Positions 7,401 through 38,589 of a stretch of DNA of 64,000 nt are shown piece by piece. Numbering within the stretch: position 1 is the first letter of the stretch; each line of letters begins with the position of its first letter. The stretch spans positions 13,272 through 77,271 of IMG/VR virus record IMGVR_UViG_3300021088_000001; one strand, 5' to 3'. Source of the DNA: a virus. A model generated the notes under the pieces. It saw only the letters and a list, made by a program, of their open reading frames with translations, did no database searches and was not told where the DNA came from. The position numbers and the translations under genes were made by a program.

Positions 7401-9705
7401 TGGTACTAACATGGGTATTGAAACTGGCAAGAAGTCTAATCTCACCGGAGCACTTGGAAAGTTATTGAATCTGACACCACTTCAAGATCCTCTAATGAGA
7501 ATGTTATTTGGGTCTTCAACAACGTCGATTACTGACTCTGGCATTCAATTCGGTGGTTCATTAGCTAACTTGCAGCAAGGTAAGGGTTATCAACAATACG
7601 CTAACGTGAACACACAGTCGTCTTCATTATTTGGCCTTGTCCATAGTAGCTCTGACAGCACTCAAACTGCAGCACTAAGTGCAGAAGTATCAAATCAGTT
7701 TGGATTAATATTCAAGAACTTGCAGACTACATTAGTCTCTGTTGCCGCAGGACTTGGAAAGAACGCGACTGATGTTTCTAATACTCTTAACAACTTGGTC
7801 ATTAGCACACAGACAGCATCACTGAATGGACTGAAAGGCCCAGAGCTGCAGACGGCAATTAACAATGTTATCTCTGCTACGATGGATACGATTGCACAAG
7901 CTGCATTCCCATCTATGGGAGCTTTCCAGCAAGTTGGTGAAGGCTATGCACAAACTGTATTGCGTGTGGCCTCTGATACAGAGATAGCCACTACCGCATT
8001 AAAGACCCTCGGAATCACTGCCATTAACTTCAATGACATTGTGAATAAATCAGGAGATGTGGCACTTCAGATTGAACAGCAGAGTATTGCATTGAAAGAG
8101 GGCACAACTGGAGTAAATGAGATTGTGCAAGCTTTCACTGGAACTGCTGCAGATTTGATTACTCAGTATCAGCAATTAGTGGCTGCAAGACAAGCCATGC
8201 AAAATATGGGGCTTGGTGGAGGACTCAATGCTGCCACAGTTCAGGGTGCTGGAGGATTAGCAAACTTAACCACAGCATTAACTGACTATCAGTCTAAATA
8301 CTTCACAACTGCTGAGCAATTGCAATCTGAGACAAATGATGTGAGTAAGCAGTTTGCCGATCTAGGTAAGCAACTTCCAACAAGTCGTGACCAATTGAGA
8401 AGCTGGATTGAAGCTGCTGAGAAGATTGGCGATCAAAAGATGGTTGGGCAATTACTTGCCCTGACAGGTAACTTTGATAAATTGTTTACAGCGATGGGTA
8501 GTGTCAATGGTCTTACCTCTGAAGTAGCTATAGCATTCCAGAAGCTTAAGGATGTTGTAGCTGCACAGAAGTCCACCATTGAGGCTAACTTTTCGACAGC
8601 TTCTACAGCGCTCAGCACACAACATGCTATAGCAATGGGAAGCATCGCTCAAAGTGCTACTGCTGAAATGACGGCTCTTGATCAAACAAGAGAAGCCAGA
8701 ACAGCAGCTATGATGGAGTACATGGCACAAGAGCAGCAGAAGTTAGCTATTGTCACTGCTAATGTAGCTGCTGAGACTTTAGCTGTGTCTGGACTCCAAT
8801 CCATCTTAGGATCTTTGAACACTGCAATCACTGCTACTACAACTTTGACACAATCTCAACTGAGAGAGAATGCGCAGTCAACTCTGCAAACAGCTACAAC
8901 ATCCGCAGATATTGCCAATGTACCGGGTCTTGCCGATGCTATCAAGGAAATCCAGAAGCCGTCTGAGAATCTGTATAAGACTTTTGCAGAATACCAGCAT
9001 AGTCAAGCCGAGGCGTCTAGCGCATTACAGACCATAAAGGACAAAGGTGCTGTACAATTGACAGCTCTGCAACAGCAACTTGCTGCAGACACAGCCACTA
9101 AAGATGCCATTACTGCAGAATCTGCAGCACTCCAAACATCTTTGTTGAATGTATCTGCATCTGATAAAGCTGCTGTAGCTGCTCAAACAGCTATTCAACA
9201 AGCTGCTGAGAATGATAGATTTAACACTGCCCAGAGCGCATTGCAGACACAACACGATGCACAAATAGCAGTATTAGATCAGCAGCTTAACATTGCACAG
9301 ATGGAAGTTAATGCGATAGGTCAAGTTAACAGCTCAGTAGTATCTTTAGGGGCTGCTATGCTAACATTCAGAAGTGCTGTTGGTAACACCCCAAGTGCTC
9401 CAGATATGATGAATTTGAATATTCCTCATTATGATGTTGGAACACCATTTGTCACTGCTGATACTGTAGCAATGGTGCATAAGGGTGAACGTATTATTCC
9501 AGCTTCAGATAACATTGAGATAACTCGCAGGCTGAAGTCTTCTGGTGAGGCTGCTAATGATCCAGAGTTGATGGCTAAAGTACAAGAGTTAATTGAAGTT
9601 ATGCAAATTGGAGATGCCGCTAATGTAAGAAAATCTAACGATATGTATCGAATTGTTAGGCAATGGGAAAATAATGGCATGCCTCCAACAAGAGCTGTAT
9701 TGTAA
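4468..9705 (+). CDS. Tail tape measure protein
   Basis: 1745 aa, Ala/Gln-rich and helical; LALTGNYAG lambda-H-like motif; C-terminal YDVGT..VHKGERIIP. Confidence 0.92.
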   Translation: MSEDISTLIMRVISDGIKDGTSQLNDLTKAAALAEGAANKLASTTISAGAATKGATAAQTSATAAVQASTEVLRQQAIQQARDIELHNLAGKAYAAEAAEAYKMNAAIDAAAKGHTSLAGVTREVMVSVHEIAIGSFKRLGGTLMVLANQFGLLGAAVATFGVVTIGAFVAIAAAIGLFAFAAYKGYSELKTFNDHLALTGNYAGVTASGIAEMAKTISLRTGESTVDVRKMGMAMAETGVFTESSIKVGMGALTTYARLSGKTEEEVVAHFAGMKDGVAKWMMEEEKTVPAFTATTLAKVMDLEKLGEHAKAVELAMTEMGDFVEKNKPKLNAFGEAVKFVADMFKDLWQGMKDLTNDDSLEKQLDRAKKLADGYYTFGIKFSDVSTKLASAAKDSISNMQDQIDGQGVLNALIADETAHKKEALDIAGKVRTAEDKRNLDLETRVDLMKRINTELDKEDTGALTAFQKQEYLREQLKRYDAAHKVAKEKGMDDSKALRDIELERNKQYFAEIARQEDMDIAHSLSVANKQHGDQEYELTQREALYDKRIEDLKTMHDKEKAITDAYANEKHTPVELAQNALKAERELSIFQAANDAVEARRQADEDSVAAKETQRHDQAMKHIESTTGAEQKKLEEELKNDKLKEQSIGQLKSVQLAARQEMEITQNKDLAFRIEIAKFAQEEAILNGKLSQNEISETNTQIAAMQKLLGVREEIITSLGKQVGLEQGVEASARMTKDIDDALANAKRFEKGMTAAFGSVGKAIGAMSVAFQQLAKDQDIAHQQFLKASKEDIASGKAKADLQAATADAQITGYANIAQAAQGMFDSNSKGYAAMGAISKVFHIAEAIMNAERMIQLGITAVLNQGQGDPYSAFARMAAMAAIVAGLGVAIGGAGGGGNAPDSHAAAQVQAAQGTGTVFGDTTAKSNSIADSLKLLQANSNLMLPLTQSMTGSLKNIETSMTGLTNLIIRTAGIASGTNMGIETGKKSNLTGALGKLLNLTPLQDPLMRMLFGSSTTSITDSGIQFGGSLANLQQGKGYQQYANVNTQSSSLFGLVHSSSDSTQTAALSAEVSNQFGLIFKNLQTTLVSVAAGLGKNATDVSNTLNNLVISTQTASLNGLKGPELQTAINNVISATMDTIAQAAFPSMGAFQQVGEGYAQTVLRVASDTEIATTALKTLGITAINFNDIVNKSGDVALQIEQQSIALKEGTTGVNEIVQAFTGTAADLITQYQQLVAARQAMQNMGLGGGLNAATVQGAGGLANLTTALTDYQSKYFTTAEQLQSETNDVSKQFADLGKQLPTSRDQLRSWIEAAEKIGDQKMVGQLLALTGNFDKLFTAMGSVNGLTSEVAIAFQKLKDVVAAQKSTIEANFSTASTALSTQHAIAMGSIAQSATAEMTALDQTREARTAAMMEYMAQEQQKLAIVTANVAAETLAVSGLQSILGSLNTAITATTTLTQSQLRENAQSTLQTATTSADIANVPGLADAIKEIQKPSENLYKTFAEYQHSQAEASSALQTIKDKGAVQLTALQQQLAADTATKDAITAESAALQTSLLNVSASDKAAVAAQTAIQQAAENDRFNTAQSALQTQHDAQIAVLDQQLNIAQMEVNAIGQVNSSVVSLGAAMLTFRSAVGNTPSAPDMMNLNIPHYDVGTPFVTADTVAMVHKGERIIPASDNIEITRRLKSSGEAANDPELMAKVQELIEVMQIGDAANVRKSNDMYRIVRQWENNGMPPTRAVL

Positions 9706-9807: not shown

Positions 9808-11451
9808 ATGCGAATAATTCGTCCTATTGATGTCATTGATACGGGTTCATTTACACGAGCATCAGCAGCAAGGTATTTCGACAGTCTTGGTGTTATACAA
9901 TCAGCAACAACAGATACACCTAGGTTTGGGTACAATCCTGCGAATCTTGCCGCTGGCCCGACACTACTACAAGAAGCTGCAGCTACGAATCTTCTGCTAC
10001 GCAGTCAAACATTTGATAATGCTGCTTGGGCTAAGACTCATGCAACAGCTACAGCAGCATCTACATCAGCTCCAGATGGTACAACCACTGGAGAATTATT
10101 AGCTGAAGACAACACAACTAATGTGCACACAGTTGATCAAGCTGCAGGAAGTCAAGCGGCTGGAACATACACTTTCAGCTTTTATGCTAAGGCAAGCACA
10201 AGAAGTCAGATTTTAGCGCAACAAACAGCCACCACTACATACGGTGGAGTGTTTGATCTGGTGGCATTAACTTTCACACCAACTGCTGGCGGCGCTACTG
10301 GAACTCTAACAGCTATTGCTGTCACAGGGTGGTATTTATGTGCAATGACATTTACTACTGTCGCTACCATCACTCTAGATATGTCCCTCGGGCTGTACAA
10401 TGGTGCAGCTTCTTACGCAGGCGACGGAGTTAGTGGCCTATATATTTGGGGCAGTCAACTAGAAACAGGAAGTGTTGCCACAAGTTATATTGTAACCACC
10501 TCTGCCACAGTGGCTAGAGCTGCAGATGTGAACACAGAGATGTTTGTCTCTAATGTACCAGAGACTGATTATGCTTTGTATAATGCAGGAACAACTTATG
10601 CGTTAGGGGATTTCGTTCTTTCTCTGACAGCGCCAACAGCACATAACATTTACCAATCTGCTGCAGCGAGTAACACTGGTAATGCCCTTACAAACACAGC
10701 TAAGTGGACGTTAGTAAGTTCTGATAATAGATGGAAGTTATTTGACAATGTTGTATCGAATCAAAGCACACAAGCTACCAGTATCTGTGCTGCTATAACT
10801 CCAGTGAACTCTGTCCTAGAGAGATTTGATTCTGTTGCAGGATTCAATTGCTCTGCTACCTCAGTCACTGTGAACATGGTTGACCCTACATACGGTAATG
10901 TTTATAGCAATACAGTGTCAATGGTGTCTACTTCAGGTATCACGGATTGGTTTGCATATTATTTCGAACCTATTGTATTCTTAGTGGACTTTGTTGTAGA
11001 AGATATGCCAATCACTTATCCACATTCAACAGTCACTGTGTGCTTCTCTGCACCATCTGGAACAGCAGAGTGTGGAGAGTTAGTACTCGGACTGTCTAAA
11101 GAGTTAGGATTCACAGAATACGGATCTACTTTCAGTATAACAGACTATAGTGTAAAAACACAAGATGTGTTTGGAAATTACAATATTGTTCCAAGAAGCT
11201 TTAGTAAGCGCGCTGAGTTTTATATTCAAGTGCCTAACACTTCTGTAGACTTCTTCCAGAATCTGCTTGCTACATACAGGAACACTCCAGTTGTGTATGT
11301 TGGATCTAACTCAACTGACAGCATCGCTGGAAGCAGCACTCCCCAACAATTCCAAGTGGCAGCTATTTATGGTTTCTGGAAAGACTTCACGACAACAATT
11401 GCTTACCCATTATATTCTCAGTGTGACCTACAAATTGAAGGACTAAATTAA
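9808..11451 (+). CDS. Tail tip/distal tail protein with inserted carbohydrate-binding-like domain
   Basis: Follows the tape measure; FTRAS..TPRF..ATNLLLRS..IWGSQLE insert; C-terminal DYSVKTQDVFGN..YGFWKDF domain. Confidence 0.65.
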   Translation: MRIIRPIDVIDTGSFTRASAARYFDSLGVIQSATTDTPRFGYNPANLAAGPTLLQEAAATNLLLRSQTFDNAAWAKTHATATAASTSAPDGTTTGELLAEDNTTNVHTVDQAAGSQAAGTYTFSFYAKASTRSQILAQQTATTTYGGVFDLVALTFTPTAGGATGTLTAIAVTGWYLCAMTFTTVATITLDMSLGLYNGAASYAGDGVSGLYIWGSQLETGSVATSYIVTTSATVARAADVNTEMFVSNVPETDYALYNAGTTYALGDFVLSLTAPTAHNIYQSAAASNTGNALTNTAKWTLVSSDNRWKLFDNVVSNQSTQATSICAAITPVNSVLERFDSVAGFNCSATSVTVNMVDPTYGNVYSNTVSMVSTSGITDWFAYYFEPIVFLVDFVVEDMPITYPHSTVTVCFSAPSGTAECGELVLGLSKELGFTEYGSTFSITDYSVKTQDVFGNYNIVPRSFSKRAEFYIQVPNTSVDFFQNLLATYRNTPVVYVGSNSTDSIAGSSTPQQFQVAAIYGFWKDFTTTIAYPLYSQCDLQIEGLN

Positions 11452-12869
11452 TGACAACTATAACACAGGTTATCGCTGCACTACCAACCGCCCCTAATAG
11501 AAGTATGGTGGCTACAGTGTATGTGCCAACTGCTGATGCATGGGTAGCTGCGTTACCTACATTTGGCACACAGATGAATACAGTGGCTACCCAGATGAAC
11601 ACAGTGGCAGGGGAGGTTAGCACAAATGCTACGAATGCTGCAGCAAGTGCCACTGCTGCTGCTACGAGTGCTAGTGCTGCTGCAGCTTCTGCCACTGCTG
11701 CTTTGTCTACAGCAAATGCTACAATCTGGGCTGGAGCTACAGCATACACAGCAGGACAAAATGTAATTAGTCCAATAACCTATGGGACTTACCGCAGGCT
11801 AATCAGTGGTACAACTGCTACAGATCCTTCGGCAGACACTACAAATTGGCTACTAGTTAGTTTACCATCTCCTGCGAGTCATACGAATCAGTTCTTACAG
11901 AGCACTGGAACAAGCTATCAATGGGCTTCTACTATAGGGCTGCCAACTGCACAAGGAAGACTTACACTCACGACGCTTACACCGATCATGGTAGCAGACG
12001 CCACTGCACAATCCACAGTATACTACACTCCATACATTGGAAATGAATTTCAATTATATAATGGTACTGCTTTTGTTAGCACTGTATTTGCAGAGACATC
12101 TCTTGCGCTTGACAGTAATGCAGGACATACAAACTATCATCAATCTGGTAAGCTGTTTGATTTGTATATGTATAGTGACAGTGGTACAATTAGACTTGGT
12201 ACAGGCCCTGCTTGGACATCTAGCACAGCTCGTGGCACTGGCGCAGGAACAACAGAATTGCAGATGCTGCTAGGAATCTGGACTAATAAGAATTCCATTA
12301 CACTGCGCTTCGGAAGCGTATCAGGTAATACAACTGTTGTTGCGGCCAATCAAGCTACATATGTTGGTACGATGTATGCCACAGCAGACGGACAAACAGG
12401 AATGGCATTTAAGCCTGCTGGAGTTAGCAGTGGTAATAGTTGCTTTCTAGGTTTATACAATTCATATAACAGAGTCAAGACTGTATCAGTCTGCACAGAC
12501 AGTAGTGCTTGGTCTTATACCACAAATACTTGGCGCAGTGCGCACGGAAGCAGCTCAAACAGGATTTCATTTGTAGATGGGCTTGCACAATCTCCTATTG
12601 TATCTAAATACGTTACTACTGCCACAGGTTCAAGTGGCGCAGCTAAAGGGATAGGATTAAATTTTGACAGCACTTCTGCCACTCCTTTATATGTAGGTGG
12701 TACTGTCGATTCCAGCGGTTCAGGTCCATCAGTATCCGCCGAAGAATTTTTTCAAGCTTCATTAGGATTACATTATATCCAAGCAATGGAAGTTGGTGCC
12801 GCTGGAGGCGCATTTGGTACAGTTGCAAATATAGCACTTTCAAATATAAGTATCTCCCTAGACATGTAA
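11451..12869 (+). CDS. Tail fibre/receptor-binding protein
   Basis: N-terminal LPTAPNR anchor, Ala-rich coiled coil, then QGRLTLTT beta domain. Confidence 0.7.
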   Translation: MTTITQVIAALPTAPNRSMVATVYVPTADAWVAALPTFGTQMNTVATQMNTVAGEVSTNATNAAASATAAATSASAAAASATAALSTANATIWAGATAYTAGQNVISPITYGTYRRLISGTTATDPSADTTNWLLVSLPSPASHTNQFLQSTGTSYQWASTIGLPTAQGRLTLTTLTPIMVADATAQSTVYYTPYIGNEFQLYNGTAFVSTVFAETSLALDSNAGHTNYHQSGKLFDLYMYSDSGTIRLGTGPAWTSSTARGTGAGTTELQMLLGIWTNKNSITLRFGSVSGNTTVVAANQATYVGTMYATADGQTGMAFKPAGVSSGNSCFLGLYNSYNRVKTVSVCTDSSAWSYTTNTWRSAHGSSSNRISFVDGLAQSPIVSKYVTTATGSSGAAKGIGLNFDSTSATPLYVGGTVDSSGSGPSVSAEEFFQASLGLHYIQAMEVGAAGGAFGTVANIALSNISISLDM

Positions 12870-12902
12870 TAATTTATCAACCCTTAACATAAGGAAAACA
12901 AA

Positions 12903-13022
12903 ATGAAGTTAACACTAGACACAGGTGGCGGTCATATTCCAACAGGGCATGCTCCAGTACTTCCAGTAGAACCTCCAGTAAAACCTCTCAAACCAGAAGA
13001 TCTGGAAAACACTGAAGACTAA
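12903..13022 (+). CDS. 39-aa Gly/Pro-rich peptide (not in ORF track)
   Basis: AAGGAAAACAAAATG start; MKLTLDTGGGHIPTGHAPVLPVEPPVKPLKPEDLENTED; stop abuts the next ATG. Confidence 0.65.
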   Translation: MKLTLDTGGGHIPTGHAPVLPVEPPVKPLKPEDLENTED

Positions 13023-13448
13023 ATGCTTCTTGCCTACATATTGTTGGCAATAGCACTTGCCCTAACTATATGGGATAGGAATTCTCTGCTGCTCACACTT
13101 GCTGTGGGCTGTAGTTATTTCCTCCCTGTGGAGCTTATCACATCTAGGCCGTTGTGGGTAGCGGCTTGTATTGTATCTGAACTCACTGTGCTTTCTATTG
13201 CTTTGTACTTACAGACACAAGCAACTAAAGCTGTCGGATGCATGTGCGGACTTCTAGTCCTGTGCCATTTACTTGGATGGTATTTTAGTGGATTTGACAC
13301 TAGTACTTATGCGAGTATTGTGTATCAAACGATTGAACCATATCTAGAGTATATGGAGATATTGGCATGTATAGTGTTTTCTAAACCAGTGATTGATAAA
13401 ATATTTAAGGGGACAAAATGTCTACTGAAGTTTGGGTTTGGTGTCTAA
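13023..13448 (+). CDS. Multipass membrane protein of unknown function
   Basis: 4-5 hydrophobic segments in 141 aa. Confidence 0.7.
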   Translation: MLLAYILLAIALALTIWDRNSLLLTLAVGCSYFLPVELITSRPLWVAACIVSELTVLSIALYLQTQATKAVGCMCGLLVLCHLLGWYFSGFDTSTYASIVYQTIEPYLEYMEILACIVFSKPVIDKIFKGTKCLLKFGFGV

Positions 13449-13774
13449 CAGGAGTAATGTCACTTGTGACAGTTTTAAGCGCCACCATTTGGAAGATGTT
13501 ACGAGACGAATCTAAGAAGCAAGCAGAAGCTATTGAAAAGAAAGCCGACCAAGAGAGATTGCACGAAGTAGAGGGCAGATGGAGAGAAGAACTTAACACT
13601 GTGCGAGAGAATCATAAAGAACTCCTCGTGAATCAAGACAGACGACACGAGCGTGATCTAGATCAAATGTCAATTCGCCTCGGGGACCAAATAAGAAATT
13701 CTGAATCAAATATTTTGGCACAAATCAAGCTGATGATAGAAGTCTTGAAGCCATCAAATAAGTTCAATCAATAA
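13418..13774 (+). CDS. Holin/antiholin-like protein (one TM plus coiled coil)
   Basis: N-terminal TM, charged helical tail, directly upstream of the endolysin. Confidence 0.55.
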   Translation: MSTEVWVWCLTGVMSLVTVLSATIWKMLRDESKKQAEAIEKKADQERLHEVEGRWREELNTVRENHKELLVNQDRRHERDLDQMSIRLGDQIRNSESNILAQIKLMIEVLKPSNKFNQ

Positions 13775-13798: not shown

Positions 13799-14320
13799 AT
13801 GACAGAAGAACAATTGAAACAGATTTATAAATATGCAAGTGATATTACCATTAGTACCTTCTACGATTCATTTTGTGCGGCTATGGCTGAGTTTGAAATT
13901 AACACACCACTTAGACAAGCTGCATTCGTGGCTCAAGTCGGCCATGAGTCAGGTGAATTTAGATACACGATAGAATTGGCATCAGGAAATGACTACGAGG
14001 GAAGAAAAGATTTAGGAAATATATATCCGGGAGATGGGATTAGGTTTAAAGGAAGAGGTCTTATCCAGATTACTGGAAGAGCTAATTATGCAGAAGTTGG
14101 AAAAGCATTAGATATTGACTGTGTAAATAACCCACATCTATTGCAAGCTCCAGTATGCGCATGCAGATCTGCCGGTTATTTCTGGAAGAAGCACGGACTC
14201 AACGAATTAGCCGATGCAGAGGAATTTATCTCTATCACTAAACGAATTAATGGTGGAACTACAGGAGAAGCAGAGAGGGAACAGATTTACATGTTAGCCA
14301 AAGCTGTTTTAAATGCATGA
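13799..14320 (+). CDS. Endolysin, glycoside hydrolase family 19
   Basis: AQVGHESG..YEGRKDLGN..GDG.RFKGRGLIQITGRANY..TKRINGG. Confidence 0.93.
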   Translation: MTEEQLKQIYKYASDITISTFYDSFCAAMAEFEINTPLRQAAFVAQVGHESGEFRYTIELASGNDYEGRKDLGNIYPGDGIRFKGRGLIQITGRANYAEVGKALDIDCVNNPHLLQAPVCACRSAGYFWKKHGLNELADAEEFISITKRINGGTTGEAEREQIYMLAKAVLNA

Positions 14321-14586
14321 AGCTCCTACATAGAGTACTGAAAGATCTTTCAACAGGAGTTGATGGAGAGACATATGATCCGGGCAGAGTAGTTGGGTAT
14401 AGTCTATGCATTCTAGGAGTAGTGGGATTTATTTTCTGTGAAACATGGACAGCAATGCATGGCACAGCATTTAGTGCTGAAGGCTTCGGAATAGGCTTTG
14501 GAGCCTTAATGACAAGCTTCTTGTCGGTAGCAGGCGGATTGAAATTAAAAGAATCTATGGAGCCTGTAGAACAAAAGGAGAAATAA
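14317..14586 (+). CDS. Holin-like two-TM protein
   Basis: Two hydrophobic segments, charged C-terminus; lies between endolysin and spanins. Confidence 0.6.
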   Translation: MKLLHRVLKDLSTGVDGETYDPGRVVGYSLCILGVVGFIFCETWTAMHGTAFSAEGFGIGFGALMTSFLSVAGGLKLKESMEPVEQKEK

Positions 14587-14587
14587 A

Positions 14588-15097
14588 ATGAACCCATTAG
14601 CAATTAAGGGTATAGCAACATTACTGTTTGTATTAGCAATATTCATGGCAGGGCATCATCAGGGAGCTAAGTCAGTTCAAGGTGAATGGGATGCAGCGAA
14701 AGTAGTTCAACTAGCTGAAACAAATAAAATCATAGCAGACAATGCTGCACGAGTTGAACAGTTACAACAGGCTTACACGGAAACTAATAGAAAGGTATCA
14801 AATGATTACCAAACAGAGAAATCTAAGATCGAGGCTGAGCGCGATGCTGCCATTACTAATTCTAGTAAGCCTACTCAGCGCCTGTACATCACAGCAGCTT
14901 GTGGTAAAGCCCCTGCCAGTGGACCCAAAGCCGCAAGTATCAGCGGACCTGATGCAACCGCTTCCAGCACCATCGCACTTCCTCAGCAAACTTCAGACGA
15001 TCTTTTCCGACTCGCAGCCGAAGCAGACGAAGTAGTTGCTCAAGCTAAAGCTCTCCAAGAGTGGATTAAAGATAATGGGTTTTATACTACAAAGTGA
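14588..15097 (+). CDS. Rz: Inner-membrane spanin (Rz-like)
   Basis: N-terminal TM, coiled coil, RLAAEADEVVAQAKALQEW. Confidence 0.85.
   Translation: MNPLAIKGIATLLFVLAIFMAGHHQGAKSVQGEWDAAKVVQLAETNKIIADNAARVEQLQQAYTETNRKVSNDYQTEKSKIEAERDAAITNSSKPTQRLYITAACGKAPASGPKAASISGPDATASSTIALPQQTSDDLFRLAAEADEVVAQAKALQEWIKDNGFYTTK
14844..15035 (+). CDS. Rz1: Outer-membrane lipoprotein spanin (Rz1-like) embedded in Rz
   Basis: MLPLLILVSLLSAC lipobox then Pro-rich tail, in the +1 frame inside Rz. Confidence 0.85.
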   Translation: MLPLLILVSLLSACTSQQLVVKPLPVDPKPQVSADLMQPLPAPSHFLSKLQTIFSDSQPKQTK

Positions 15098-15191: not shown

Positions 15192-15221
15192 GCCTCTCCG
15201 TTTTAAGGGAGAGGCTTTTTT
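15192..15221 (+). terminator. Rho-independent terminator ending the lysis operon
   Basis: GCCTCTCC..GGAGAGGC TTTTTT. Confidence 0.85.
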
Positions 15222-15253
15222 ACGTCCGTACTCTACGGAGTGCCTATCCTCTC

Positions 15254-15365: not shown

Positions 15366-16475
15366 ATGCTTATGGATGAACCCATAACATTGCAACAACA
15401 CGAGGATAATTCAATTTCTCGTGCTGCAGATTTATCAAATCAAATTAAACAAATGACAAAGGATGGTAAAATGACTACTGTAGCAGATGGTACACCTGTG
15501 AACATTTTTCACAGCGGATTGGGCGGTGGTGGCGCTGTGGGCGCTGGTATGGGTGCAGGTTTGGGCGCTGGCGTCTTGGGTGGCGTGTTGGGCGGTGCGC
15601 TGATGGGCCGCAGAGGCTTGTTTGGTGGGGATGGTGTAGATGGAGTTGTTGCACCAGTTGTGACTCCTGCATTCCTATCTTCGGAACTTAATCGTATTCA
15701 GGAAAATCAAAATGCCACTATTGCAGCTTCTGAACGCCTTAATATGGCGCGTTTTGACGCAGATGCTCAGCGTTCTATTGAAGCCGCTATTGAGCGCACT
15801 GCCGCAGCAACTCAATTGGCTCAAGCAGTTGGTAATGCCGCAATCGGTGTAGAGGTAGCTAAAAATGCTGGCGAATTAAATACTCAAGCAGCTTTGAATG
15901 CTGCGGCATTGGGTGTTCAAGTTCAGAAAACTGCTGGTGATACACAAACTCAAATTGCAACTCAAACTGCAGCATTGGGTGTGCAAGCTGAGAAGACAGC
16001 AGCAGCAAATGCTTTGGCTACAGCGATGGCTCTGAAGGATTCTGTCATCATCGCTGATGCACATCATGCTTCTACTGCGTCGCATATTGCAGAGAGTAAG
16101 TACGCTCTGTCAAATGCGATTAAAGCTGATGGAGATTTGACTCGTGCACTGATCATCAAGAACAATGATGATGAGCTGAACCGTAGATTAGTGATACAAG
16201 CAAATGAAATTACAGAACTTCGCAACGAGGGCCGTAGACGTGCTGACAATGATGGATTGCGTCTAGAGATTAATAACGTGAATACTGCTGTGGCAAGTCA
16301 AGCTCAAGCACAGGCAATGCAGCAACAGCAACAACAGTTAAATGTTCTGAATCAATTGGCTACAGGTATTAACACACTTGTCAGTCAAAATCAAGTTGTG
16401 CACAATGGAATCGTCAATTTAGGTTCCATGATTGCATCTGGTAATCCTACAAGCGCTAACACTCGTGTAATGTAA
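15366..16475 (+). CDS. Glycine-zipper, Ala/Gln-rich coiled-coil protein of unknown function
   Basis: AAGGAG RBS; GxxxG run; 22-aa internal repeats; own terminator. Confidence 0.8.
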   Translation: MLMDEPITLQQHEDNSISRAADLSNQIKQMTKDGKMTTVADGTPVNIFHSGLGGGGAVGAGMGAGLGAGVLGGVLGGALMGRRGLFGGDGVDGVVAPVVTPAFLSSELNRIQENQNATIAASERLNMARFDADAQRSIEAAIERTAAATQLAQAVGNAAIGVEVAKNAGELNTQAALNAAALGVQVQKTAGDTQTQIATQTAALGVQAEKTAAANALATAMALKDSVIIADAHHASTASHIAESKYALSNAIKADGDLTRALIIKNNDDELNRRLVIQANEITELRNEGRRRADNDGLRLEINNVNTAVASQAQAQAMQQQQQQLNVLNQLATGINTLVSQNQVVHNGIVNLGSMIASGNPTSANTRVM

Positions 16476-16489
16476 AAGTAATAGGCAAT

Positions 16490-16520
16490 AAAAAGCCCAC
16501 CTTCTAGGTGGGCTTTATTT
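16490..16520. terminator. Bidirectional terminator at the convergence of the + and - arms
   Basis: AAAAAGCCCACCT..AGGTGGGCTTT. Confidence 0.85.
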
Positions 16521-17013
16521 AGCCGTAATTTGCAAATTCTCCATGTAATTCTGCACGAAGCTTATTTATAGCTTTTTCAGCATCTGATAAATCTATGAAG
16601 AAACCTGCACTATACAACTTCTTATCTTTGTGGATATATGTATCCCATTTGCCACCTTTGGCATTCCAGCAGACTCCCTTGATTCCACTAGAGTTATTGC
16701 AATTCAATTTTCTATTTCTCTGATTCTGAAACTTAGAGGCTAATCTTAAATTACAGAATCTGTTATCATTTCGTATTCCATTAACATGGTCAATCTCCAT
16801 TTTACTTGCTGGCATTGCTCCTGTCATATAAAGCCATGCTAACCTGTGTGCAGGATAATCTCTATTAAGAACTTTTATTACATGGTATCCTTGGACACTT
16901 ACCCACCCTACAGGTAACCCAATACGTGCAGCAGTTGGTGACCAAATCCTTTTAAATTCACCTGTCTCTGGATCATACTCTAAAACTTTCTTTACTGTTT
17001 CTTGCGTTAACAT
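16519..17013 (-). CDS. HNH endonuclease with AP2-like DNA-binding domain
   Basis: YDPETGEF; AHRLAWLYMTG..IDHVNGIRNDNRFCNLR..NSSGIKGV. Confidence 0.92.
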   Translation of the reverse strand: MLTQETVKKVLEYDPETGEFKRIWSPTAARIGLPVGWVSVQGYHVIKVLNRDYPAHRLAWLYMTGAMPASKMEIDHVNGIRNDNRFCNLRLASKFQNQRNRKLNCNNSSGIKGVCWNAKGGKWDTYIHKDKKLYSAGFFIDLSDAEKAINKLRAELHGEFANYG

Positions 17014-36558: not shown

Positions 36559-36587
36559 ATTCTATATTTAATTGTTGAGGATGTCAA
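36559..36587 (-). promoter_or_regulatory. Sigma70 promoter overlapping the primase stop codon
   Basis: TTGACA-17-TAGAAT. Confidence 0.75.
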
Positions 36588-38365
36588 GCTTTGTTTGGTT
36601 TGAATGTCTCGCTTCCAAATGACATACCTTTCAATCCAAGCCAGTCATCTTTATCATACAAGGTATGAGTAGCATTATCATAGTAGTATTGGCCAACCAT
36701 TCCTGTATTTCCAGACCAGCGACATTTAGTCATCTTCATGTAAGTTGTGTTCTTTTCTAGATCTTCATCGGCCTCTTTATTTCGAGTGAACAGGAGATTA
36801 CATGCTGCACTTTTGAATATGCTAGAACTTCCAAGAAAGTCTTCTTCATGTAAGTCTGCACCAGTGCTTCCTTGCTTACCACCTTGTGGTGTTTTTCTCG
36901 TGTGATTAATATTGATAAATGTCACCCCATGAGATTTCAAGATACCCTTCATCCATCTCTGGAACACTGCCTGCTCTTCATTACTCAATCCGTCCATCAA
37001 ATCTTGAAGAGGGTCAATGATAATCACCTTACATTCGCAAGACACAATCAATTCCATGATAAGAGATTTAATTGATTCTAATCCGCCATCCCTATCTTCA
37101 ATAAGATGCCAACGATCTGTGCCATCGGGCTGCTTCCACAACTCTTCCTCCCTCCTCAACACTTCAGGAGAGTTAAGGAACGAAAGCTTATCTTCAACAG
37201 ACTCAATAAGGTCTATCTTCCTACCGACATGGCGAGACAGTATCTTTGTGCCATATTGCCCACTATCAGATTCTAGTGAGAGTACACCAATTTTATGTGG
37301 ACTATTAAACACCCAGAAATATGCGCATTCATCTGCAATTGTACTCTTTCCTGTCCCCGAAGCACTTCCGAGATTGACAATAACTCCTAGTGGTATTCCT
37401 GCTGCCATAGCTTTCTGTACTTTGTGCATAAATGGTGGCAATGGTATTTTAGGAATTGCGGCTGCTTCACGAATCTTCTGTCCTAAACTACTACTACCCA
37501 CAATACCATCTGGACTGTAGGGTACGGCATCAAAGAAAGCTCGAAGGAATTGCTTCTCTTTACCTTTAGTAAGATACTCATTAGCATCTTTAAGGGTAAG
37601 TTTCATAACAAACATCTTATTCTTCGGCAACACATCTACAAGCTTTTTAACAGCCTCTCTGCCAGCATCGTCATTATCGTAGCACACCACAATACGCTGT
37701 GCCTGATTAAGCCATGCATATTGTAATTGTACTTGTTTAAAACTTCCAGATTCACCGATAGCGCTAGAAACTACTGGAGTGGCATCAAAATCACTTCCCT
37801 TGCCAACACGGTAATTCTCAAGCATCTGGAATGCACTCATTGCATCAATCTCACCAGCACACAACAACACATATTTAGCCTGATGGTCTTTCCATTTCCA
37901 TTGGCCAAATAATTCTGAATTCTTACCAATCTTTCCTACTGAATAGAAATCCTTAACGGGCGTAGACCGTACTTTGAAGCCTGCAGCCTTGTAATCTTGT
38001 GTGTAAGGATAATAGTGCTCAACAACTTCTGCAGTCTCTTCGTTGTATTTAAATCGGCAAGCATAAGCCTTGTATGTCTCGTCAGTAATCCCTCGTTGTC
38101 CTTTTCCTGATGTGCCAGTATACTCCTTGATTGCTTCTATTTCTTCTGGAGTGATAATTTCTTTAGTACTCACTTCGGAGTCCTGATATTCATATTTGTC
38201 AATCCCTTTCTGTTCTTTTTGTTCGTCAGATAACTCTGTATAAAAGCAGGCATGACAATAGCCTCCTAATCCTTCGCCATAATAGTGAAAGTTATTTCCA
38301 GAGGTATCACGTCCATTTTTACGACAACGTTTGCAAGGATTTTTTCCGACTATGTACTTTGTCAT
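36584..38365 (-). CDS. T7 gp4-like DNA primase-helicase
   Basis: Zn finger CxxC..CHAC; GEIDA and YDND Toprim; SGTGKST Walker A; IIDP; HTRK; KCRWSG. Confidence 0.95.
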   Translation of the reverse strand: MTKYIVGKNPCKRCRKNGRDTSGNNFHYYGEGLGGYCHACFYTELSDEQKEQKGIDKYEYQDSEVSTKEIITPEEIEAIKEYTGTSGKGQRGITDETYKAYACRFKYNEETAEVVEHYYPYTQDYKAAGFKVRSTPVKDFYSVGKIGKNSELFGQWKWKDHQAKYVLLCAGEIDAMSAFQMLENYRVGKGSDFDATPVVSSAIGESGSFKQVQLQYAWLNQAQRIVVCYDNDDAGREAVKKLVDVLPKNKMFVMKLTLKDANEYLTKGKEKQFLRAFFDAVPYSPDGIVGSSSLGQKIREAAAIPKIPLPPFMHKVQKAMAAGIPLGVIVNLGSASGTGKSTIADECAYFWVFNSPHKIGVLSLESDSGQYGTKILSRHVGRKIDLIESVEDKLSFLNSPEVLRREEELWKQPDGTDRWHLIEDRDGGLESIKSLIMELIVSCECKVIIIDPLQDLMDGLSNEEQAVFQRWMKGILKSHGVTFININHTRKTPQGGKQGSTGADLHEEDFLGSSSIFKSAACNLLFTRNKEADEDLEKNTTYMKMTKCRWSGNTGMVGQYYYDNATHTLYDKDDWLGLKGMSFGSETFKPNKA

Positions 38366-38379
38366 ACAATATATACCAT

Positions 38380-38589
38380 TCAGTCTCCCCAATTATACTC
38401 AAAACCATAATCCCACTCTTGGCATAAGTAGTCGATAGCCTCATCATCTTCAACGGAAATACCCTCTTCTTTAGTTTCTTCAGTGGGGTAAATTATTCCG
38501 CCCTTACTGACGAGAAAATTTCCAGCTAATTGCGCCCACGCTGAGCATTCGTCCCATCTACTACTTAGATACTCATTTGCTTGTGGCAT
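38380..38589 (-). CDS. Hypothetical protein
   Basis: GGAGG RBS; AIDYLCQEWDY. Confidence 0.6.
   Translation of the reverse strand: MPQANEYLSSRWDECSAWAQLAGNFLVSKGGIIYPTEETKEEGISVEDDEAIDYLCQEWDYGFEYNWGD

Follow-up and report, generated by a model that had tools for sequence, protein, structure and literature searches.

A conserved micropeptide and membrane protein gene pair at the head of lysis cassettes in uncultivated phages

The window analysed here is a stretch of 64,000 nucleotides covering positions 13272-77271 of IMG/VR record IMGVR_UViG_3300021088_000001, a complete virus genome of 77,271 bp with direct terminal repeats. Its lysis cassette opens with two adjoining genes, pep39 and mp141, which encode a 39-residue micropeptide and a 141-residue multipass membrane protein, respectively. 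This peptide gene and membrane gene form a real, conserved and previously undescribed pair, a two-gene module that stands outside all databases, is absent from 50,697 deposited phage records and is kept in dozens of uncultivated phages. Gene position, conservation and structural models suggest, at a level of confidence that we would call middling, that the pair is a translationally coupled micropeptide and five-transmembrane (five-TM) accessory module regulating lysis. Lysis timing sets burst size and phage fitness, and to our knowledge the known regulators of this timing (antiholins, dual-start holins, T4 RI/RIII) all come from a handful of model phages.

The micropeptide gene and its conservation

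The initial annotation had described a 39-residue open reading frame (ORF) with a strong ribosome-binding site, ending in TAA directly before the ATG of a membrane gene, and all of these elements are present in the sequence: an AAGGA Shine-Dalgarno (SD) site precedes an ORF at 12903-13022, whose stop codon directly abuts the mp141 start at 13023. Codon usage was scored by log odds, with 42 long ORFs of the same genome as the training set, and pep39 reaches 0.38 when read in frame but -0.92 and -0.47 when read out of frame; in-frame 39-codon windows of real genes have a mean score of 0.29, and none of the off-frame windows reached 0.38. The claim that the peptide was unannotated holds in part, as pep39 has already been called as protein P0070 in a large protein collection and gene callers mostly miss the family. 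A word-indexed protein search for relatives returned none beyond pep39 itself.

Structurally, pep39 consists of a 7-residue head, the sequence GGGHIP and a Pro-rich acidic tail, and it contains no signal peptide, TM segment, hydrophobic or amphipathic segment, or Cys. The peptide with a DTGGGHIP core and Pro-rich acidic tail that was initially proposed is real, as judged by its codon usage and by the homologous ORFs that lie upstream of the retrievable homologues of mp141. Relative to the family motif described below, GGGHIP retains the Gly triplet and the second Pro, with the first Pro replaced by Ile; the core reads H-I-P-T, and the sole Pro-Pro of the peptide is found at residues 24-25. The nearest motif variants are GGGNPP (L073, L078 and L085) and GGGKRPP (L139, an AT-rich contig), and by its motif pep39 appears to be a divergent member of a G-x-G-x-P-P family.

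Homologous loci were fetched with a hand-made degenerate DNA pattern for family residues 45-82, which lies wholly within the membrane gene; this pattern recognises 30 of 69 known members (~43%), and all fetched loci rest on it. In IMG/VR it matched 33 stretches, giving 31 family members (hmmsearch E 1e-25 to 1e-45), while 31 matched stretches of GTDB genomes gave two members on contigs of ~40 kb from metagenome-assembled genomes (MAGs) with Ramlibacter and Novosphingobium labels, and 91 matched metagenome stretches, 80 of which were read, gave 24 members, 14 of them new. Together with the window these amount to 58 loci, ~44 of them non-redundant at 95% identity, and their membrane proteins share 25-40% identity with that of the window. 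A short ORF lies upstream of the membrane gene at every locus with upstream DNA (31/31 in IMG/VR, 2/2 in GTDB and 23/23 in metagenomes, the last count leaving out one locus cut at its 5' end), this being the outcome of the check initially proposed, a look for short Gly-Gly- or Pro-rich ORFs upstream of homologues of the 141-residue protein.

The geometry of the junction is as constant as the presence of the ORF. At every informative locus the peptide stop falls -6 to +7 nt from the start codon of the membrane gene: at 14 loci the two genes overlap as ATGA or GTGA, 5 loci read TAATG, and the others leave a few bases between the genes. The peptide ORFs are mostly 25-47 codons long with a good SD site, and they share the motif [A/V/T]-G-[N/G/H]-G-[N/D/E/K/H]-P-P-[P/K], usually placed 6-13 residues after the initiator Met (mode 7) and followed by a Pro- and charge-rich tail of 3-33 residues and varied sequence. 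Consecutive prolines are present in all 31 IMG/VR relatives, and 25 of these carry P-P-P. As in pep39, no signal peptide, TM segment or hydrophobic segment was seen among the relatives, and no Cys is conserved. Six-frame translation of 97 unrelated loci (623 kb) yields the motif a single time, and that of 33 family loci yields it 34 times, always upstream of the membrane gene; the window's own 77-kb genome holds a single occurrence, that of pep39. One relative (L074, region 2642-2760 on the minus strand, with its duplicate L157) carries G-N-G-E-P-P-P twice, near its start and at its very end. A literature search on the motif and related terms returned nothing relevant. Collectively, these loci define what is, by sequence, a new micropeptide family with a near-invariant motif.

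Codon-level variation locates the target of selection. The motif codons vary freely at third positions, with GGA, GGC and GGT for Gly, AAC and AAT for Asn and all four CCN codons for Pro. Across eleven pairs of relatives, the proportion of synonymous differences in the peptide (pS) is 0.53 and that of non-synonymous differences (pN) is 0.14, with pN/pS between 0.05 and 0.45 per pair. With the prolines taken as the boundary, the head has a pN/pS of 0.15, the tail one of 0.30 and the tails of the closest pairs values of 0.05-0.13. Low pN/pS combined with free synonymous change indicates that the amino-acid sequence is selected, rather than an RNA or DNA element. By these measures the peptide is under purifying selection, acting on the head M-x(5-12)-[A/V/T]-G-[N/G/H]-G-x-P-P and less strongly on the Pro-rich, charged tail.

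The membrane protein family, its predicted fold and its predicted topology

No Pfam or PHROG model matches mp141, and neither megablast nor tblastn (E <= 1) matched it in 50,697 phage records; tblastn with three members of its family likewise found no match in cultured phages, and a word-indexed protein search with mp141 returned only mp141 itself. Scans of IMG/VR, GTDB genomes and JGI metagenomes with the single protein, and with peptide patterns taken from the alignment, found no homologue either. A full HMMER scan of 1.84 billion representatives gave 67 clusters (E <= 1e-3; best 6e-21), and 25 of these also passed E <= 1e-10. These relatives come from metagenomes, are ~110-155 residues long and can be aligned end to end, and the closest of them, mostly from Logan assemblies, share 41-47% identity with mp141. 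Within the family H82 and Y101 are invariant, and N15, P35, C49, E53, E109 and S120 are conserved in at least 90% of members. None of 73 family members matches Pfam, PHROGs, PADLOC or NCBIfam above noise, and the family profile found nothing among PDB sequences. Nor did the profile find a match, even at E <= 10, in the crAss-like phage crAssE-Sib (OR575929; PMC11054128), where the motif pattern of the peptide does not occur either.

AlphaFold2, supplied with the 73-sequence alignment, modelled mp141 with a mean predicted local distance difference test score (pLDDT) of 95.1 and a predicted template modelling score of 0.86. The modelled helices span residues 2-14, 19-32, 42-63, 68-88, 96-118 and 121-138, and they are assigned as five TM helices and a C-terminal amphipathic helix; the initial estimate of four to five TM segments was thus right as to a multipass protein, with the model giving five and an additional helix. 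Foldseek comparison of the model with the PDB returned nothing below E 0.35, VIA-align returned only generic four-helix bundles with Z up to 11.6, under the level that is meaningful for helical bundles, and the ESM Atlas yielded only unnamed viral clusters and generic membrane bundles.

The charge distribution points to a defined orientation. Mean family counts of Lys plus Arg are 1.97 in loop 1, 1.38 in loop 3 and 3.32 in the C-terminal part, against 0.38 in loop 2, 0.29 in loop 4 and 0 at the N-terminus. Because positive charges concentrate in loops 1 and 3 and the C-terminal part, the positive-inside rule predicts a five-TM topology with the N-terminus outside and the C-terminus inside. In the AlphaFold model the conserved polar residues are buried in a tightly packed bundle, and the helix positions would place Cys49, Glu53, His82, Tyr101 and Glu109 in its periplasmic half; the model offers a candidate active or sensing pocket.

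Probable translational coupling, proposed role and alternatives

The late operon of the window runs from the tail-fibre genes through pep39, mp141, tm118, a GH19 endolysin, tm89 and Rz/Rz1 to a terminator (Table 1), and no terminator-like site was found in the window between the last tail-fibre gene and pep39. As initially described, the membrane gene overlaps a one-TM gene (tm118, by 31 nt), and a two-TM candidate (tm89) follows the endolysin. Wherever downstream DNA is present, a lysis-cassette gene comes directly after the membrane gene and usually overlaps it, and at the fetched loci the pair was never found apart from the cassette or elsewhere in the genome. It heads cassettes with GH19, GH24-like, GH108-like, M15-like or other endolysins and with LydA-like or other holin candidates. 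In the majority layout, type A, which includes the window, the pair is followed by a one-TM coiled-coil protein of 94-131 residues, a varied endolysin, two- or three-TM proteins and spanins; in type B it is followed by a two-TM protein of ~151-166 residues, a LydA-family protein (PF16083 at its cut-off; phrog_6384 at 1e-10), an endolysin and spanins.

The pair is also patchily distributed, and the nearest kin of the window phage are without it. The mp141 family is absent from 29 primase/helicase-related records, including G019 and G020 with 74-78% primase identity, and from 18 endolysin- or tail-fibre-related records; in G020 the slot holds two unrelated ORFs, followed by a tm118 homologue (50% identical) and a different endolysin. 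The backbones that carry the pair differ in size (37-58 kb against 77 kb) and share neither tail-fibre nor endolysin type. From this distribution, the pair is best described as an accessory module that is independent of endolysin and holin family.

Analysis of the initiation sites distinguishes the two genes of the pair. The median SD/anti-SD energy is -6.2 kcal/mol for the peptide ORFs, -1.8 kcal/mol for the membrane genes and -4.4 kcal/mol for the next gene, and only 1 of 30 membrane genes reaches -6 kcal/mol or lower; the corresponding values in the window are -6.2 for pep39, -3.3 for mp141 and -8.3 kcal/mol for the next gene. Since the membrane gene lacks an SD site of its own and the stop and start codons are so closely placed, ribosomes almost certainly reach the membrane gene by terminating on the peptide ORF and reinitiating. 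The missing SD site likewise implies that part of the job of the peptide ORF is to bring ribosomes to the membrane gene. Read-through or frameshift fusion of the two ORFs was considered as a general mechanism and rejected, as the frame relation differs between loci. No RNA structure or attenuator signal was detected over 12870-13070 of the window (z -0.98).

In its expression the pair recalls mok/hok of plasmid R1 and lysis-gene reinitiation in MS2, where a membrane gene without its own ribosome-binding site likewise has a start that overlaps or abuts the stop of a leader. Unlike mok/hok, the leader of the pair is conserved in amino-acid sequence, with free synonymous change, across membrane proteins with as little as ~25-35% identity to that of the window, and no antisense RNA or mRNA fold-back was detected over 12870-13070 of the window.

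A lysis-control role is the most economical reading of the position of the pair, and to this extent the initial proposal that a peptide and membrane protein could tune lysis timing is partly supported by a co-inherited pair chained to the front of the cassette; the accompanying proposal of a membrane processor or sensor found no support. As the first two cistrons of the lysis cassette, pep39 and mp141 constitute a conserved accessory module of two genes. Ribosomes can load at the SD site of the peptide gene. In the proposed mechanism, mp141 would be made only by reinitiation after the peptide ORF, and the peptide ORF would set the mp141 dose, with an early poly-proline pause involved in most relatives. 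Within this reading the peptide may act in trans, as a product, or in cis, as a nascent chain; in favour of the latter, an early poly-proline run behind a strong SD site is, according to work on EF-P, the arrangement most sensitive to pausing. Because it carries no export signal, the peptide would stay in the cytoplasm, acting on the synthesis of its partner or at its cytoplasmic face, and the pair would modulate the time of holin firing, as an antiholin or holin modulator, rather than being itself needed for lysis. A precedent for a cytoplasmic component is T4 RIII, a small cytoplasmic protein able to take part in holin control.

Like P2 LysA, P1 LydB and T4 RI/RIII, the pair adds to the holin-endolysin-spanin cassette, within it or at its border, an extra and dispensable membrane gene that some phages carry and their close relatives lack. 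It differs from them in that the mp141 family lies outside every PHROG, Pfam and NCBIfam model, has five TM segments with buried Cys/Glu/His/Tyr/Glu residues and an obligatory upstream micropeptide, and is known from sequence only. By analogy, the pair resembles antiholin-type accessories in function and leader-coupled small membrane proteins in expression, being by sequence a member of neither group.

Several observations weigh against lysis regulation by a coupled module of this kind. The lysis role is read from gene position, with no characterised homologue, and membrane proteins unrelated to lysis also adjoin phage lysis or tail-fibre genes. The window peptide has lost the P-P-P run, reading IPT instead, which implies that a poly-proline pause is not the whole story here. 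In an AlphaFold model of the read-through fusion, with TAA replaced by Gly, the peptide head reaches a pLDDT of only 64-68 and shows no confident docking. In L088, L094 (= L134) and L206 the motif forms the C-terminal end of a longer upstream ORF of 64 to ~145 residues, apparently because a small upstream gene has lost the stop that separated it from the peptide gene, and a cis role fits this arrangement better than a free peptide does; in L094 an internal Met survives two residues ahead of the motif. Finally, the peptides of L076/L096 and of L069/L070 are nearly identical within each pair, whereas the membrane proteins differ at ~40% of non-synonymous sites, which argues against tight pairwise co-adaptation.

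A more specific version of lysis control, which we regard as tentative and rather improbable, is that of a lysis clock. Here the conserved micropeptide would be made first, from the sole ribosome entry site of the module, and its G-x-G-x-P-P head would gate either the synthesis of the five-TM protein, through EF-P/poly-proline sensing of how well the host translates, or its activity; the five-TM protein would in turn monitor the envelope or the proton-motive force through its buried Cys/Glu/His/Tyr/Glu pocket and so control the triggering of the holin. If this were true, lysis timing would respond to host physiology in many virulent phages. More generally, gating of lysis by the peptide or by its translation would represent a new principle by which lysis is tied to the state of the host, and might provide a compact means of timing lysis.

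Alternatively, and again with low probability, the peptide ORF could be a cis leader only, in which the nascent G-N-G-N-P-P-P pauses the ribosome in an EF-P-dependent manner, throttles or conditions reinitiation and ties the lysis module to the translational state of the host, the released peptide being functionless. Poly-proline stalls require EF-P, and leader ORFs with proline codons, such as mgtL and mgtP, work as sensors. Similar to mgtL and mgtP of Salmonella and to SecM, the peptide ORF is short and, in the relatives, has its run of Pro codons shortly before a gene for a membrane protein, with peptide conservation concentrated on the residues that would lie inside the exit tunnel at the pause. 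Action in cis is further indicated by a conserved stretch that peaks up to, and ends exactly with, the near-universal prolines, by the variable length and sequence of the rest, by a strong SD site for the peptide and none for the downstream gene, and by the longer ORFs and divergent partner proteins described above. A product acting in trans is indicated, on the other hand, by selection on the whole ORF including its tail, and by the window copy, which has IPT rather than PPP yet remains intact and well adapted in codon usage. Additionally, the prolines lie at varying distances from the downstream start, the invariant Gly-x-Gly meets no known requirement of proline stalling, and over 12870-13070 of the window neither an RNA structure signal nor alternative hairpins were found. 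Even as a leader ORF only, the family would be a well-supported conserved coding leader in phages.

It is unlikely that the five-TM protein is itself the hole-former of a new holin class, with the peptide as its cytoplasmic inhibitor or timer in the style of a labile antidote. The layout is that expected of a holin, as mp141 is small and belongs to an overlapping chain of genes that reaches the endolysin two genes downstream, and a small first gene with an overlapping membrane gene resembles antidote-toxin operons. Moreover, L071 and L074 have no other recognisable holin, their cassettes consisting of the peptide, the five-TM protein, a one-TM coiled-coil protein, an endolysin and a small lipoprotein. 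Most cassettes, however, carry separate holin-like genes, namely the PF16083 LydA-like gene in type B, a 72-residue phrog_1356 gene in L070 and two- or three-TM genes including tm89; no Pfam or PHROG holin model matches any family member, a packed bundle (pLDDT 95) with buried conserved polar residues is unlike known holins, and close relatives lyse without the five-TM protein.

Similarly doubtful is a membrane moron unrelated to lysis, serving for example in superinfection exclusion or envelope modification and riding in the late operon. Phages are known to carry cargo between their tail-fibre and lysis genes, and the patchy occurrence of the module in backbones that share neither size, tail-fibre type nor endolysin type would suit such cargo. 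Against this stand the lysis-cassette gene that directly follows the membrane gene wherever downstream DNA is available, the failure of the pair ever to occur separately, and the lack of a promoter or terminator of its own in the window.

The initial annotation had further suggested a peptide precursor with a membrane processor or sensor, AgrD/AgrB-like in layout only, that signals between infections. A diffusible signal of this kind, processed or exported by the membrane protein in an AgrD/AgrB-like or arbitrium-like manner, is the weakest of the alternatives and very improbable, as neither the peptide nor the cassette supplies any means of export, processing or reception. The layout is shared, with a small conserved peptide gene beside a small multipass gene whose product has an invariant His and a near-invariant Cys, and the acidic or basic tail might be a segment that is removed. 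However, mp141 and the 73 family members have no match to PF04647 (AgrB) and no peptidase or transporter homology, agrB-agrD has the opposite gene order, the pair is flanked by tail-fibre and lysis genes only, with no AgrC/AgrA and no receptor, kinase or transporter gene, and the context is that of lysis by a Gram-negative phage. The peptides have no amphipathic segment, pep39 offers neither a Cys or Ser for ring formation nor a membrane-binding helix, and the His and Cys of mp141 lie on different helices in the predicted periplasmic half, whereas the peptide is made in the cytoplasm. In contrast to AimP of the AimP/AimR arbitrium system, pep39 and its relatives lack an N-terminal secretion signal. 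Finally, none of 25 carrier records (18 of them at least 90% complete) has a tyrosine integrase, which was found in 14/14 control genomes, serine integrases not having been searched; for want of this enzyme the carriers look like virulent phages, with no lysis-lysogeny decision to signal.

Cassette components, carriers and neighbouring features

The features of the window cassette are listed in Table 1. Within it, tm89 is the most conventional holin candidate; it has no Pfam or PHROG match, and a look-alike occupies the same slot in L083. In the Rz1 frame the longest ORF begins at 14742.

Table 1. Features of the late operon around pep39 and mp141 (window coordinates).
Feature	Position	Strand	Basis or remark
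Tail-fibre genes	9808-11451, 11451-12869		
SD site AAGGA of pep39	12891..12895	+	7 nt before ATG; anti-SD duplex -6.2 kcal/mol
pep39, 39-aa micropeptide gene, G-x-G-x-P-P family	12903..13022	+	Codon usage; homologous ORFs in family loci
Codons of conserved core GGGHIP, variant of G-[N/G/H]-G-x-P-P	12924..12941	+	Anchored peptide alignment
mp141, 141-aa predicted five-TM protein with C-terminal amphipathic helix	13023..13448	+	Family alignments, AlphaFold2, positive-inside counts
tm118, 118 aa, N-terminal TM and charged coiled coil	13418..13774	+	Alignment with one-TM coiled-coil family
GH19-type endolysin	13799..14320	+	PF00182 4e-09; phrog_181 1e-57
tm89, 89-aa two-TM protein	14317..14586	+	ATGA overlap with endolysin stop
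Rz-type i-spanin	14588..15097	+	PF03245 2e-09; phrog_1327
Rz1-type o-spanin, +1 frame inside Rz	14844..15035	+	phrog_3198, phrog_456; lipobox ending in Cys
Intrinsic terminator-like hairpin (15192-15215) with T run	15192..15225	+	Closes late/lysis operon

Other cassette members show recurrent features of their own. In type B, a conserved two-TM protein of 151-166 residues (L072:7986-8438 and relatives), matching phrog_20672 of unknown function, always lies between the five-TM and LydA-like genes, and from this LydB-like position it could be an antiholin partner. In L071 and L074 the endolysin is followed by a lipoprotein-like gene with a lipobox (L071:2095-2376; L074:1239-1448, minus strand; 70-94 residues, no family match) and by a DUF1353 protein, with no Rz/Rz1 pair, and spanin function may there be split between the one-TM coiled-coil protein and the lipoprotein. 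Proteins of the tm118 type make up a separate family and lie directly upstream of different endolysin classes, also in phages without the pair (L067:5717-6058; L012:5711-5992; L008:5711-5992). No Pfam model matches tm118, and its PHROG matches are only weak, some of them to Rz-like spanins; its charge distribution suggests that the coiled coil is cytoplasmic, unlike that of an i-spanin.

Regarding the carriers, the two GTDB members, found among 185,579 species genomes, are L103 (Ramlibacter MAG, DATNCB010000563.1) and L113 (Novosphingobium MAG, JAPLPG010000203.1). Both contigs look like whole phage genomes binned into MAGs, and L103 is nearly identical to the IMG/VR contigs L089 and L093. Judged by the MAG labels, the GC-rich branch of the family may have beta- and alphaproteobacterial hosts; the window phage has 41% GC. 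The primase/helicase of the window (36584-38392, minus strand) shares 53-54% identity with those of phiPsa374/KIL-type Pseudomonas and Pectobacterium phages of ~90-100 kb, and its nearest IMG/VR relatives, at 74-78%, are in records of ~82 kb; by this comparison the window phage is a smaller, undescribed relative of the phiPsa374/KIL-type group.

Downstream of the window cassette lies a glycine-zipper/coiled-coil protein (15366-16475, 16519-17013, minus strand) with a homologue in the same place (7661-8617, 8982-9467) in L086, a 40-kb phage that carries the pair, the match consisting of two colinear BLASTP segments with E values of 2e-06 and 1e-05. The HNH-like neighbour of the glycine-zipper gene in the window has homologues in L086, L078 and L149, and the shared block may extend past the spanins.

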